Part shown: in pieces, positions 1,521 to 59,698 of the stretch
Layout: every line of letters starts with the position of its first letter
Numbering within the stretch: position 1 is the first letter of the stretch
Source of the DNA: Octopus vulgaris
Lineage: Eukaryota
Assembly: GCA_951406725.2 (NCBI GenBank)
Contig: OX597827.1
Span: 29,698,001-29,762,000 of the forward strand
DNA: 64,000 bases
Direction of reading: 5' to 3'
The notes under the pieces: generated by a model
Databases searched by the model: none
What the model saw: only the letters and a program-made list of their open reading frames with translations
Told to the model about the DNA's origin: nothing
Made by a program: the position numbers and the translations under genes

Positions 1521-2799
1521 TTTACATACTTAGCCACGGAATATTCTCTTTTCTATCTCATTCCTGTCACTGCCAGATTTGAGTTTTCTCTTTATATTAC
1601 AGCTTGGTAATTATCTTGTGACCTCAAAATTTACATAAACTAAAGTGCGTGACCTCTTATTTCCTACAATAGAAAGAATTACGATAAAAGCATTCAGCAT
1701 AGTTTCTATCTAGAGATACGTTCGGCTCACTCTTTCTCTCTCTCTCTCTCTCTCTCTCTCTCTCTCTCTCTCTCTCTCTCTCTCTCTCTCTCCCTATCTA
1801 TTATTATTTTGCTTCTGTATCTATCTCCTTTCTCACTCTCACTGTTTATCGCTTCCACCGTATGTTTGTATATGTCTATATTTGCATACATATATACATA
1901 TATATATATGTGTGTGTGTGTGTGTGTGCTTATGGCTGCATTTCTGTACGTCTGTATGTGTGGGTGCATATCTACATATACACTTATGCATAAACAAATA
2001 CATATATCTGCACATATATATATATATATATATATATATATATATATATATATATATATATATATATATATATATACAAATATACACATACACTATAACG
2101 TAAATACATACATATATAAAATGTGTGTGCGCGCGCGCGTGTGTGTATGTGTGAAGGTGCTTGGTTTATTGGTTAGGATATTCGGCTTACGATTGCTAGA
2201 TCGTGAGCTCAATCTGCGGCGACGAGTTGGGTCCTTGAGCAAGACACTTTATTTCACGTTGCTCCAGTACACTCAGCTGGCAAAAATGAGTTGTACCAGT
2301 AATTCAAAGGGCCAGCCTTGTCACACTCGGTGTCACGCTGAATCTCCCTAACAACTATGTTAAAGGTACACGTGTCTGTACCTTTAATATAGTAGGTTTT
2401 CCGTTTCTGATTCACTGTAACCCTTTCATATATATATATATATATATATATATATATATGACAAATGGAAATACCCTGGAACCAGACTTTTCCACTGGTC
2501 TTCTCACCGCTAGATGGTATGGGTTCGATCCCCTGCTCGCAATATATCGGACTCAGATTGTATCGTTAACCAGCGTGGGGAGATATCCTCCTGGCGTTAA
2601 AAAAATGGTACAAACGTAGTTCCGTACGAAACAGCAATATTGAAGTGGCATCAAACATTACTTATATATATATACACACACACACACACACACATATATA
2701 TATATATATATATATATATATATATATATCTATATATATATATATATATATATATATATGAATAAATGAAGGAATGGAGTCGAACGATGATGTTAACAC

Positions 2800-2895
2800 A
2801 ATTCCTCTCGACACATGTTTCGAAGACAGCATGTTTTCATTCCAAAAGAATAAAGGGTGCATTATGCAATCTTCTCATCAGGAAAGAAAGGGAGC
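2800..2895 (-). ncRNA. Type I hammerhead ribozyme in the inverted pLTR copy
   Basis: Reverse complement of the 5565-5661 motif: CUGAUGA-GAAGA...UCUUC-GAAAC-AUGU-GUC. Confidence 0.8.
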
Positions 2896-3082
2896 CTCTC
2901 TCGACAACAGGACAAACAAAAATTTCGATGATTGCCTACATGGTAAACAAAGCGATAATGAGTGTTTTTTTAAAAAAACCGTTAGAAGAATTGACGTCAA
3001 AAATAGATAGTAGGAAGAGAAGGGATAAAGTAATAATAGGTAGGGAACAGTATGTTTGCTGTATGCATGGGAATGTGTGGCT

Positions 3083-4440
3083 GTGAAACTAAGCAGATTA
3101 TGGAGACTTATTGATTACAGATGAAGACGGAACCATTGAACCCTAGGCAACCCAGATTCATCTTAAAGGACCATAAACAGAACTTTCATACTAACCCAGC
3201 ATTGCGGCTCATATGCGCTTCCAGTTCAGACATCGGTACCCTTAGTAAATACATATTAGATAAGTATATCCCTATATTAATTAATAAATTAAAACTTAGC
3301 TTATGGTCCAATTCTGTTCAAGTCGTAGATTGGTTTACTTCTATTACTGATAAGGCCAACACTAAATTTATCCAATTCGATATATCTAGTTTCTATTCTT
3401 CAATCAACCCTATTATACTTAATATGCCCTATGGCACGCACACAATAAGGCAGGCCTCTCCAGGGAGGAAGTTAGTGTGATATTGACTGCTAGGAAATCT
3501 TTCATCCAGTCCGATAGCAAGTTGTGGGTCCGTAGAGACACCCCTAATGCGTTTGATGTACTAATGGGAAGTACAGACAGCGCCCAGATAGCCGATTTGG
3601 TCGGAATTTATATTCTTTATGAAATGGCCGACCAATTCCCGGACATCTGTGGAGGTCTTTATCGCGACGATTGTCTGCTTTACCTCCAAAACGTTTCGAA
3701 CCAAAAAATACAGGTTAAGAACAGATTAGTTAGGTTTTTTAGTAGAATGAGCTTGCGCATAGTTTTGACGATGAATTAACTAAAGCCAACTTCTTAGACA
3801 TTACCCTCAATCTGCAGAATAACTCATACTTCCCTTATCATAAACCTTCCACTAATCTTAAGTATATCAGCATTTTCAGTAATCATGCCAAGCCAATTAC
3901 CGATAATTTAGTTAAAAACATATCTCTGAGACTGTCCAAATTATCTGCTAATGTCGACATCTTTAACCAAAAGGCAGACTTCTATAACGCCGCCTTGTCA
4001 AGAGCCGGTTATAAGGAGAAAGTGTCATACATCAACCCAGTTCATTCTAAACCAACATCTGCTTCTCCAATAGTAAAGTTACTCGTAATAGGAATAAAGA
4101 TTTCAATTCTAATAGTGCCAGCAACCCTGTACATAAGATAAATTCTTTACGGACTAGGGGAGGTAAGCGCCATGCAACCCCAAATTTCCAACCCAGAAAT
4201 TTTCCCCTTACTATCACAAATAACACTAAGAACAATTCAAAGGCCACAAAAAACTGTATCTGGTTTGTAATACCTTTCGGAAAAGAAATTAAATCGAACC
4301 TTCCCTTACAGTTCCGTGAAGCCGTTGCTAGGAACTTTCCCAGAAATTCTAGATATTATTCTATTATCAATTCCCACAAGGTCAGAATAGCTTTCTCTAA
4401 CACTAGGAATCTTTCACAAATTCTTGCTAATTCCAAACCA
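3083..4440 (+). pseudogene. Penelope-type reverse transcriptase, frameshifted
   Basis: PLE RT motifs across three frames: FILKDHKQNF, LRLI, FIQFDISSFYSSI, FDVLMGS-D-AQIADLVG, GGLYRDD, followed by NFLDITLNL, PYHKP and SNH. Confidence 0.9.
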
Positions 4441-4707
4441 TCATACAATCATAATAATAAGAATAGTATTAATAGTAGCAGCATTAGTAGCAGCGAAAGT
4501 GTTAATAATGATAATATTAATAATAATATTAGTCGTGTTAATAACAATGGTAGTGTTGATGGTAACAACAATAACGGTATTATTGTCGGTGGTATTACTG
4601 ATTGTAATACCATTAATAATACTAATAATAATAGAAATAGTGTAGTTGTTAGCGCTAATAATAATAGTAACAACAATCATAACAAAAAAAACTTCGTCTC
4701 GATCTCG

Positions 4708-57579: not shown

Positions 57580-57616
57580 GTTTACGAAGAAGAGCGTCTG
57601 CTCGAAACGTTAAACC
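57580..57616 (+). ncRNA. Minimal hammerhead-like motif, same family as 6349
   Basis: gttt-ACGAAGAA-GAGC-GTCT-GCTC-GAAACGTT-aaac. Confidence 0.5.
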
Positions 57617-57969
57617 ATCTTTCTTTCCTCTCCTGAGCGTCTGCTAATACATTACATGTACCACGTCCTCACGTTGTTGTTTTTTTGCGGTTTGTTCTTT
57701 TTGGAGTTACTATATGTGTGTGTGTGTGTATGTAGAGAGAGAGAGAGAGAGAGAGAAATAATTGTATAGGGTATATTCATACATAAGGGCACATAAGCTA
57801 TTATGCTTATATGCCTTTGTGACCTTAAGTACAATTGTACCCTGTACGATTATATATCTCTATAAATGTATTTTACCCAAAGGGTCTTTGTATGCTGGCC
57901 ACTAATAAATTCATTAATTTTAATGATTTTATCCTCTAATTATGTTATATATATATATATGTATATATA

Positions 57970-58722
57970 TACATAAAGGGTGAAATATAATTAATTTAAT
58001 AAAATTAATAAATTTCACCTAGTAGTTTTTTCGGTATGGAAATGACAATATTCGGTAAGAATTATATTAATTATAATAAAGGGTTAATTGCAACAAGTTG
58101 CTCAAAACCACATACCGAAAATATTAGAAATAGCAGCCAAATAGGTCACTATTACTACTACTAGAAAAAATAAGTCTCCACAAACAAACAGAATGTGTAA
58201 CCCGTATATGGTAAAGAGGAAGAAGACAACGAAATCCCAGCCTATTGGATTAATTATGGACGAATTCGTTTCTGGATTAGAATCGAAAGTTCATTTCCTT
58301 GTCAACATAATATTTCCTATAAATCTAGAAATGCTAGGAAAAAAATCACCCATTACATCAACTCGATCAGGCGACATCGAACGATCTAACGGTCTGCCAG
58401 CATCCCCACATTTATATAGACAGGCGAATTCGTATCTCCCTCCAAAATCACCACGTAAGTTACAAAAACAGTACCACCGAAACGAAGTTTCGTAGATTCA
58501 TTGTATGGGAGTAATAGTATTCAATACACATAAAGGGTGAAATATAATTAATTTAATAAAATTAATAAATTTCACCTAGTAGTTTTTTCGGTATGGAAAT
58601 GACCATTAATCCAATAGGCTGGGATTTCTTCTTCCTCTTTACCATATACGGGTTACAAATTCTGTTTGTTTGTGGAGACTTGTTTTTTCTAGTAGTAGTA
58701 ATAGTGATCTATTTGGCTGCTA
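57970..58722 (-). mobile_element. Non-coding PLE-like element: partial tandem (78-bp direct repeats at ~57970 and ~58527, unit ~557 nt) plus inverted arm 58605-58722
   Basis: acataaagggtgaaatataattaatttaataaaattaataaatttcacctagtagttttttcggtatggaaatgac occurs twice; 58130-58255 is the reverse complement of 58605-58722. Confidence 0.82.
58254..58310 (-). ncRNA. Decayed type I hammerhead ribozyme
   Basis: uuaug-UUGACAA-GGA...UCCa-GAAAC-GAAUUC-GUC-cauaa; palindromic stem III. Confidence 0.6.
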
Positions 58723-59162
58723 TGTATATATATATATATTTGTGTGTCTGTGCTTGTCTTCCCACCATCTCTTCACAACCGACGTCCCCATAACTTAGCG
58801 TTTCAGCAAAAGATACAGATAGAATAATTACTAGGCTTAGAAAAAATAAGTCCTGTGGTTTGGAGGGGGGGGGGCGATTTGTTCGACTAAAAGTGGTGCT
58901 CCAACATGGCCGCAGTCGAATGACCGAAACAAGTAAAAGAATAAAACAGTAAAACACTCCTATCCTTGCGTCGTTTCGATTGATCTGAGACCCTAAGCAA
59001 CCACCACTGCTACGACGACGACAGTAACACACACACACACACACACACACACACACGCGCGCACACATACATACATACATACATACATACATATGTGTAT
59101 GTGTGTGTGTTTGTAGCTGTATATATATATATATACATATACATATACATACATATATATAT

Positions 59163-59698
59163 ATAGAATGGTTGTATACTGTCAATCTAACAAGAACGTG
59201 ACAGTAGGGGGTACACCACCGTTGTATAGCCCTAGGAGGCATCGAACGCCTCCTGACACCTTCGACACATTTTTTCCCTGTGTCCTTATATACATATACG
59301 AAGGGGAGACAAACACCCCCAACCGCCGGAACTGCATCTAGGGACACCGTGTTTCAGGATCATTGTCCTTCATCGGCCTAGAGTAGCAGACACCGGTCGG
59401 CTGGTGATATCTGTCTGGACTTCGTATCTGTATATATATAAACTCAGTGAAGTCTATTCACTGATTATCAAACACCCCCGGCAGTTGGGGGTGTTTGTCT
59501 CCCCTTCGTATATGTATATAAGGACACAGGGAAAAAATGTGTCGAAGCTGTCAGGAGGTGTTCGATGCCTCCTAGGGCTATACAACGGTGGTGTACCCCC
59601 TACTGTCACGTTCTTGTTAGATTGACAGTATACAACCATTCTATCGCCTCACCACCGTACATCTCTCTACGAGAGATTTAGAAATTCAATATTTCTTA
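59163..59698 (+). mobile_element. Fold-back element: arms 59163-59328 / 59478-59644, HHR in the spacer, short tail
   Basis: ~165-bp inverted repeat; homologous to 45084-45440; (TA)n flanks. Confidence 0.9.
59332..59389 (-). ncRNA. Type I hammerhead ribozyme (CCGAUGA core variant)
   Basis: cugc-uac-ucuagg-CCGAUGA-AGGA-caauga-UCCU-GAAACA-CGG-UGUC-ccuaga-u-gcag; all stems pair and stem I has an internal loop. Confidence 0.88.

Follow-up and report, generated by a model that had tools for sequence, protein, structure and literature searches.

The stretch of octopus DNA analysed here raises the question of what the short fold-back elements lying in its TA repeats are and which machinery moves them. 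The stretch, called the window below, comprises 64,000 nucleotides (nt) of Octopus vulgaris contig OX597827.1 (G000:C14:29698001-29762000), in a genome of 2.8 Gb and 227 contigs. An original prediction, made from the letters of the window, had described six sequence-unrelated, non-coding families of fold-backs, four of them with hammerhead ribozymes (HHRs), and had taken all of them for miniature non-autonomous parasites of Penelope-like elements (PLEs) at TA microsatellites. The set is in fact mixed. Four families are short protein-free elements, of which C, D, and F carry an HHR and B a tRNA-like module, and two, A and E, are cut-off ends of coding PLEs; P denotes the coding PLE of the window. 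Most probably, Hydra-clade PLEs copy the monomers of C, D, F, and B in trans into TA repeats by means of their reverse transcriptase (RT) and GIY-YIG nuclease, and it is from such elements that the truncated ends A and E derive.

C, D, and F are non-coding HHR monomers of 365-557 nt whose start adjoins their own 3′ end in head-to-tail order, a structure that the original prediction missed together with the tRNA module of B. In family C, a regular expression finds the 3′ end joined directly to the monomer start in 24/27 loci, and the exact 26-letter HHR core gives 280 matches, with same-strand neighbours 364-369 nt apart that include dimers and, on contig C4, a trimer. The unit of F is 557 nt long and the same kind of search finds its junction in 14/28 loci; L139 contains one unit followed by another whose core is damaged, and L140 likewise contains two units. 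These counts leave out L148, which is near-identical to L147; the two loci share flanks and lie 325 kb apart on contig C2, as a segmental duplication or an assembly duplicate. The monomer of D measures about 480-490 nt and its HHR lies upstream of the extent of the window copy. Its junction was found in 2/59 loci by regular expression and by eye also in L210 and L215, and the exact core gives 122 matches; of the first 100 listed, two form a pair spaced by 476 nt. Consecutive HHR-bearing units are present in all three families (the dimers and trimer of C, the pair of D, and L139 and L140 of F). The longest stop-free frames in C, D, F, and B reach 51-97 amino acids (aa), and the GC content of the monomers is low (0.32-0.45). 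PLE proteins match within 1.5 kb of 0/30 C, 1/60 D, 1/30 F, and 0/30 B loci, that is, in 2/150, and both matches are divergent fragments. Copies of C and D are spread over most large contigs. The family searches scored 40 candidates per query; the first-look candidates, which are rough figures and not copy numbers, were 1734 for C, 2448-3207 for D, 2150 for F, and 416 for B.

The insertions leave a characteristic footprint. In A, C, D, E, and F alike, the 3′ end takes two discrete forms, one without and one with a tail (55 nt in C, 94 in D, 96 in F, 118 in E, and about 170 in A), and both forms run into TA. The 3′ end meets TA in 26/27 C, 51/59 D, 21/28 F, 29/29 E, and 28/29 A loci. The 5′ ends are scattered, inverted segments span 36-312 nt in C, 49-225 in D, and 60-314 in F, and copies without an arm are common (4/27 C, 19/59 D, and 17/28 F). 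Because arm lengths vary by copy and many copies are armless, the fold-back is one outcome of insertion and not a fixed plan of arm, spacer, arm, and tail, as had been ascribed earlier to most of the elements. Among 93 fold-backs with outward-facing ends, 76 can be classified at both (17 have an unclassified end), a set that contains no A fold-back. One tailed and one tail-less end are combined in 72/76, against 38 expected if the ends were independent. Units of one locus also resemble each other more than units of different loci. The difference within loci compared with that between loci is 0.018 versus 0.028 for 28 inverted pairs and 0.019 versus 0.038 for 14 tandem pairs in C, 0.039 versus 0.082 (12 inverted) and 0.035 versus 0.071 (26 tandem) in F, and 0.084 versus 0.098 for 46 inverted pairs in D. 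The PLE footprint of two 3′ ends, 5′ truncation, inversion, and partial tandem is found in C, D, and F; likewise, the coding families P, A, and E show (TA)n insertion, an HHR in the pseudo-long terminal repeat (pLTR), partial tandems, and inversion.

A and E are 5′-truncated, inverted 3′ ends of coding Hydra-clade PLEs. In locus L187, A continues for about 2.4 kb as non-coding sequence and then enters RT (458 aa) and endonuclease (EN; 397 aa) frames, and this locus also shows a 5′ partial tandem with inversion. Other copies of E run 5′ through about 1.5 kb of 3′ untranslated region (UTR) into a C-terminal GIY-YIG open reading frame (ORF); a PLE protein matches within 1.5 kb in 19/30 E loci, L190 has both RT and EN, and in L264 the E sequence stands in front of the ORF as its 5′ pLTR. 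The coding part of P is split over three frames, and its RT has about 70% aa identity to the natural ORF of L266. The terminal layout which P had been said to share with the small fold-backs is present, in an element that is 5′-truncated and broken. A single uninterrupted ORF with RT followed by C-terminal GIY-YIG, carrying the motifs YRDD and Y.C..Y[IV]G, is found in L264 (1090 aa) and in the relatives of P, L265 (907 aa) and L266 (899 aa). DKT, instead of DKG, is present in 4/4 RT-bearing ORFs checked, and the RW motif reads RWK in A, RWR in E, and RWL in the relatives of P. CxxC..E occurs in 5/5 EN domains and CxH in 4/5, the A copy shifting frame before the CxH site. The CxCX5C linker is found in A and E and is absent from P, L265, and L266. 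By DKT, RW(K/R/L), CxxC, and CxH, and in A and E also by CxCX5C, as defined in PMC8557442 (section 11), P, A, and E match Hydra-clade PLEs; the assignment rests on motifs because Pfam finds no family for these proteins, and neither Pfam nor PDB gave a useful match for them. The ORFs of the E family (L264, L189, and L190) have long asparagine-rich inserts between RT and EN.

Within the window (Table 1), the fold-backs lie where they had been placed, with inverted arms of 88-98% identity where this is given, and (TA)n adjoins every copy. The families do not align with one another, as had been claimed, except for C1 and C2, which are copies of one family, and for the tail of A2, which is 73% like that of E. 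A2 is a small fold-back of its own, so the element formerly drawn at 9851-10960 is two; A2 takes the place of most of the usual tail of A. A structured tail had been ascribed to these elements in general. When the tail is folded with 40 upstream bases, strong structure appears in A (z -5.0), D (z -5.2), and E (z -3.8), and none that is marked in B (z -0.1), C (-0.8), F (-1.1), or P (+1.1).

Table 1. Elements and ribozyme motifs of the window, in window positions.
Feature	Position	Strand	Inverted arms (identity)	Remarks
P, 5′-truncated, frameshifted coding PLE	2757..5861	+	2755-3085/5375-5708 (94%)	tail-less inverted pLTR 2755-3085; ORF pieces 3067-5121; pLTR 5375-5708; tail of about 155 nt
Inverted copy of P HHR	2810..2881	-
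HHR of P	5577..5648	+		type I
A, truncated folded-back 3′ end of coding PLE	9854..10662	-	9851-10073/10425-10647 (98%)	coding copy L187
HHR of A	10103..10221	-		core variant CCGANGA; descriptor match in 24/30 A loci
A2, separate small fold-back	10664..10958	+
B, tRNA-bearing monomer	31690..31975	+	43 nt (88%)	about 280 nt, non-coding; tRNA-like module inside long stem; no HHR; inverted tailed arm left, tail-less end right
Degenerate tRNA-Thr-like module of B	31806..31877	+		by relatives; window copy itself not called by ARAGORN
C1, family C copy cut off before HHR	45087..45438	+	hairpin 45084-45385	55-nt tail
D, copy cut off before its HHR	45456..45770	+	arm region 45450-45682	non-coding HHR monomer
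E, truncated folded-back 3′ end of coding PLE	45875..47066	+	45872-46214/46606-46948 (96%)	coding copies L190, L264
HHR of E	46836..46911	+		type I; inverted copy 45909-45984, minus strand
F, non-coding monomer	57972..58724	-	58130-58254/58605-58723 (93%)	partial tandem with inverted segment; direct repeat 57967-58049/58524-58606
HHR of F	58259..58305	-		U3-A8 core; one extra A before GAAA
C2, family C fold-back	59166..59697	+	59163-59329/59478-59644 (98%)	365-nt non-coding monomer
HHR of C	59343..59376	-		core variant CCGANGA
Minimal HHR motif	6352..6377	+		of a frequent repeat (13 matches in sampled loci); like motifs at 32092 and 57585
Further HHR motif	16520..16556	-		U3-A8 core
Further HHR-like motif	18421..18499	+		weak stem II
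Further HHR motif	25240..25272	-		U3-A8 core
GIY-YIG fragment	17639..18031	-		PF01541, E 1e-6; starts at TA tract
Long interspersed element (LINE)	50125..53906	-		1047-aa endonuclease-RT frame and upstream ORF
5′-truncated copy of that LINE	about 15385..16232	+		97-99% alike
LINE, presumably L1/Tx1-like	25509..30398	-		RT, zf-RVT, endonuclease-like frame, zinc-knuckle ORF1

The HHR descriptor covered type I ribozymes with a C3-G8 or U3-A8 core and stems I-III, hammerhead positions being numbered as is customary. It gives 10 strict HHRs in the window, as compared to 0-2 (mean 0.4) in 20 block shuffles, and three more minimal or degenerate motifs were picked by eye in a relaxed scan; the sum of 13 comes near the 14 or so counted before. 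An HHR is present in the window copies of A, C2, E, and F, in agreement with the number of four families first given, C1 and the D copy end before theirs, and B has none. A and C have a C at core position 4. In both D and F, stem II has an atypical base and is followed by an extra A before GAAA. For PLE ribozymes, cores of the U3-A8 type and an additional base between positions 9 and 10.1 have been reported (PMC4209133). In C, 20/34 motifs are identical. In F, the minimum-energy fold of the motif is not a hammerhead. On 400 kb of outer flanks of the sampled loci, the same descriptor gives 34 matches, which fall into 27 kinds, as compared to 0-2 in each of 5 shuffles, own-family matches having been removed by four stem letters only; their cores are 18 CTGANGA, 10 CCGANGA, and 6 TTGANAA. 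This density of 85 per Mb would bring the genome total near 10^5, a rough figure since the flanks are not a random sample. Rfam shows no hammerhead family among the 150 listed of its 418 window matches and reports none at gathering score in L049, L213, and L128; its family RF00163 gives 6 matches among 73 scored candidates genome-wide. A large repeat class may therefore be misfiled, as Rfam misses these ribozymes and a recent octopus repeat annotation is silent on them in its main text (PMC13282606).

Family B is older than C, D, and F; its 30 loci are 69-81% identical to the window copy. ARAGORN calls a tRNA in 9/32 B loci (7 Thr-GGT, 1 Thr-TGT, and 1 of undetermined type), and the Rfam tRNA model passes its cut-off in 3/3 relatives tested. 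The first 60 nt or so of the monomer precede the module, which a conserved stem encloses and a T-run follows. RNAalifold, applied to 16 copies, predicts the enclosing stem and no cloverleaf, and the covariation is weak (3/26 pairs). In 30 B loci no shared HHR descriptor match was found, and the four single matches are unrelated. The tail-to-start junction is present in 9/31 loci, one of them doubtful, and inversion in 15/31. A tRNA-derived short interspersed element (SINE) was considered for B and rejected, as the module is internal and stem-enclosed instead of forming a 5′ head, and as tandems and inversions occur. A T-run directly after a tRNA module would end a transcript of RNA polymerase III. 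For this reason, judging from the sequence, a processing role of the module is likely to be at least as probable as a promoter role. B suggests that the ribozyme is replaceable.

PLE mobilisation of the monomers is likely, given the footprint that they share with the coding PLEs. In the proposed mechanism, a tandem or circularised monomer RNA would be bound by a Hydra-clade PLE protein acting in trans, whose GIY-YIG nuclease would cut both strands at a (TA)n site. Reverse transcription would then be primed by both DNA ends, by one at the tail end and by the other 55-170 nt further upstream, at an internal site. The resulting pair of cDNAs would stop at variable points and be joined head to head, producing a fold-back that has a tail at one of its ends only; single priming would give plain or tandem inserts. 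Hydra PLEs are known to target (TA)n (PMC8557442), and the tail of a PLE has been described as often present at one end only of an insertion (PMC8557442; PMC3846280). The anole PLE protein, a predicted dimer, has been reported to cut and extend both strands at AT-rich DNA and to start at two internal RNA sites, which define the tail (PMC11167929). PMC3846280 favours, as the origin of inversions, self-priming on an antisense template. As the inserts extend across both the tail-to-start junction and the ribozyme cut site, the template would be an uncut multimer or a circle. Insertion itself likely does not require the HHR, which would cut multimers to monomers, and these may circularise; indeed, HHR cleavage was dispensable for PLE insertion in vitro (PMC11167929).

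A variant of this mechanism makes the HHR-cut, ligated circular monomer the obligatory template, which reverse transcription would copy in rolling-circle fashion, the scheme proposed for retrozymes. A circle permits inserts that span the tail-to-start junction and the cut site, it would give units that are alike within a locus, and circles have been reported for coral, mussel, and axolotl retrozymes (PMC7229834). However, an uncut tandem transcript explains the same pattern, the coding P and A copies extend beyond their HHR, and B spreads without one. Moreover, the 5′ ends of C copies do not accumulate around the HHR cut, which falls after position 130 (2 starts at 134-135). The obligatory circle is therefore conceivable, but rather unlikely.

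Much less support remains for the reading that all six families are solo or tandem pLTRs, truncated from coding PLEs whose ORF-bearing master was not sampled. It is true for A and E, to which a refuting case named in the original prediction itself applies, and it gains from the small number of candidates scored per query and from the position of the A ORF, which lies outside the 1.5-kb flanks (PLE proteins match in 2/30 A loci). C copy L049, which continues upstream differently, also speaks for it. Nevertheless, in C, F, D, and B the own tail stands 5′ of the monomer start, where the full-length PLEs L187, L264, L265, and L266 have a 5′ UTR and ORF, and the exact dimers and trimer are contrary to a pLTR-only origin. 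For these four families the reading is improbable, and the parasites first predicted survive as C, D, and F and, without an HHR, as B. Two neighbouring sequences were rejected as PLE parts. In L268, about 1.3 kb separate the PLE ORF from the B copy L174 on its downstream side, with other sequence and TA tracts between, and this copy is absent from the 5′ end of that PLE, so it is taken for a separate insertion; an F-like relative (70%) upstream of the PLE ORF in L267 is also separate. This relative has a canonical HHR core, unlike D and F (L204-L233 and L127-L156).

Slightly less probable still is that the monomers are moved by a different kind of retroelement, for instance a microsatellite-targeting LINE, or that they spread as satellite units by recombination. 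LINEs are present in the window, Dong-R4, RTE, and L1-Tx1 families are reported as recently active in an octopus genome (PMC13282606), and no end common to the monomers and a PLE was found. The dispersal of copies over most large contigs stands against this reading. LINE inversions typically copy non-overlapping parts of the RNA, unlike the monomer fold-backs. Two alternative 3′ ends and head-to-head arms copying the same 3′ sequence are marks described for PLEs (PMC3846280, PMC8557442, PMC11167929). Finally, miniature inverted-repeat transposable elements or Foldback-type DNA transposons inserting at TA, which the inverted arms and TA flanks would fit, are highly improbable, for arm lengths vary several-fold, ends are asymmetric, armless copies, 5′ truncation, and tandems are found, and neither fixed terminal inverted repeats nor a uniform length is seen.

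Several points weigh against copying of the monomers by Hydra-clade PLEs. The tail-to-start junction is missing in 3/27 C loci, and L049 has a different upstream sequence. Comparison by blastn of C, D, F, and B with the ends of coding copies (A, E, P, and L264-L268, the five covered of 20 intended extra PLE regions, most PLE families being unsampled) gave no informative match; C was compared with 8 PLE targets only, and B, D, and F showed no link to 30 A-family RT loci. B adjoins TA in only 8/31 loci, and its footprint is weaker, tailed and tail-less ends being known from the window copy. The C query and the first D query were themselves fold-backs, which favours pairs of a tailed and a tail-less end; the pairs are mixed in 21/21 cases in the E, F, and sense-queried D sets, which were not ranked on a whole fold-back and leave out the window's E copy. 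For tandem units of D, the difference within loci does not fall below that between loci (10 pairs, p 0.5); gene conversion, too, could make the units of one locus more alike. The stem covariation sought across copies is present in the F HHR, with 95.8% of stem cells paired in 24 distinct rows and 5 pairs changed on both sides (2/500 shuffles), but it is mainly an A-U/G-C switch in stem I (17 versus 7 rows) and its control ignores the kinship of copies, which inflates the result. The search for expression yielded no evidence of it; assembled contigs of guessed type, from four runs with four organism codes, cover most of the C monomer and cannot show ends, strand, or circles, and the tail-to-start joint of C was not among the contig matches listed for these runs.

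The kind of element is already known, from non-LTR retrozymes, non-autonomous PLEs, and an octopus Hydra PLE, and the monomers described here are a variant. They resemble the animal non-LTR retrozymes reported in PMC7229834 and 10.64898/2026.07.22.740005 in their non-coding monomers of 300-560 nt, type I HHR, low GC, head-to-tail copies, and co-occurrence with PLEs, and mobilisation of such retrozymes by PLEs has been proposed in both sources. Unlike them, C, D, and F occur for the most part as dispersed monomers, as partial tandems, and as fold-backs in (TA)n, with a pair of alternative 3′ ends of PLE type, and their HHR cores are variant (CCGANGA, U3-A8, extra A). They also lack pLTR homology to the coding PLEs compared, whereas 24/57 Xenopus retrozyme families are reported to match annotated repeats, nearly all PLEs (10.64898/2026.07.22.740005). 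The putatively non-autonomous Chlamys PLEs, e.g., MRC1, are likewise non-coding, pLTR-forming, and inserted head to tail; however, they belong to green algae, generally share 3′ ends with autonomous families, and mostly lack an HHR (PMC8557442). Like B, SINEs and the Helenus and Ajax terminal-repeat retrotransposons in miniature have a tRNA-derived module with A/B-box-like sequence (PMC10886601). In B, conversely, the module is internal, stem-enclosed, and followed by a T-run, with PLE-type tandems and inversions and neither a head-body-tail plan nor LTRs. In Schistosoma, HHR pairs on opposite strands 100-700 bp apart have been reported (PMC4209133).

Hydra-1_Obim of Octopus bimaculoides is listed with (TA)n insertion and an HHR (PMC8557442 supplement). 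P, A, and E resemble Hydra-clade PLEs including this one in their C-terminal GIY-YIG, DKT, RW(K/R/L), CxxC, CxH, HHR, and (TA)n target. They are longer than those described, with ORFs of 899-1090 aa, asparagine-rich inserts, and 3′ UTRs of up to about 2.4 kb; tails measure 118-170 nt here as compared to 30-40 bp reported for PLEs (PMC8557442), the P lineage is without the CxCX5C linker, and their HHR sequences differ by eye from that of Hydra-1_Obim. In full-text searches of the literature, such monomers in cephalopods or a tRNA-bearing PLE parasite were not found described; Repbase, subscription journals, preprint supplements, and, for B, the tRNA-derived octopus SINEs of Ohshima and Okada (1994) fall outside this scope. 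The main text of an octopus repeat annotation (PMC13282606), as distinct from its supplement and library, yielded no hammerhead, ribozyme, retrozyme, non-autonomous, or Hydra.

The published case for PLEs as the movers of animal retrozymes rests on co-occurrence and pLTR similarity. The same TA-repeat footprint in protein-free monomers and coding Hydra PLEs of one genome ties both by mechanism. The rule of unequal ends quantifies a feature known qualitatively and constrains how PLE inversions form, and the mapped start sites make PLE copying testable in the existing in vitro PLE assay. More speculatively, and with a good deal of doubt, the monomers may represent a guild of unrelated SINE-like parasites of Hydra-clade PLEs. 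They would have no homology to their helper, be recognised via the two-site tail, and carry an exchangeable processing module, in C, D, and F a hammerhead and in B a tRNA mimic that host tRNA nucleases would cut; two-primer integration, of which the rule of unequal ends would be the record, would be general to PLEs, and HHRs might number about 10^5 genome-wide.

Among minor observations, the GIY-YIG fragment of the window probably comes from another PLE clade. Another HHR element, resembling the pLTR of A, lies at about 1000-1440 of L049 and is joined directly beside the tail of the C copy. In the window, the unrelated C1, D, and E are stacked within one TA tract (45042-47140), which suggests that each insertion leaves a target for the next one.

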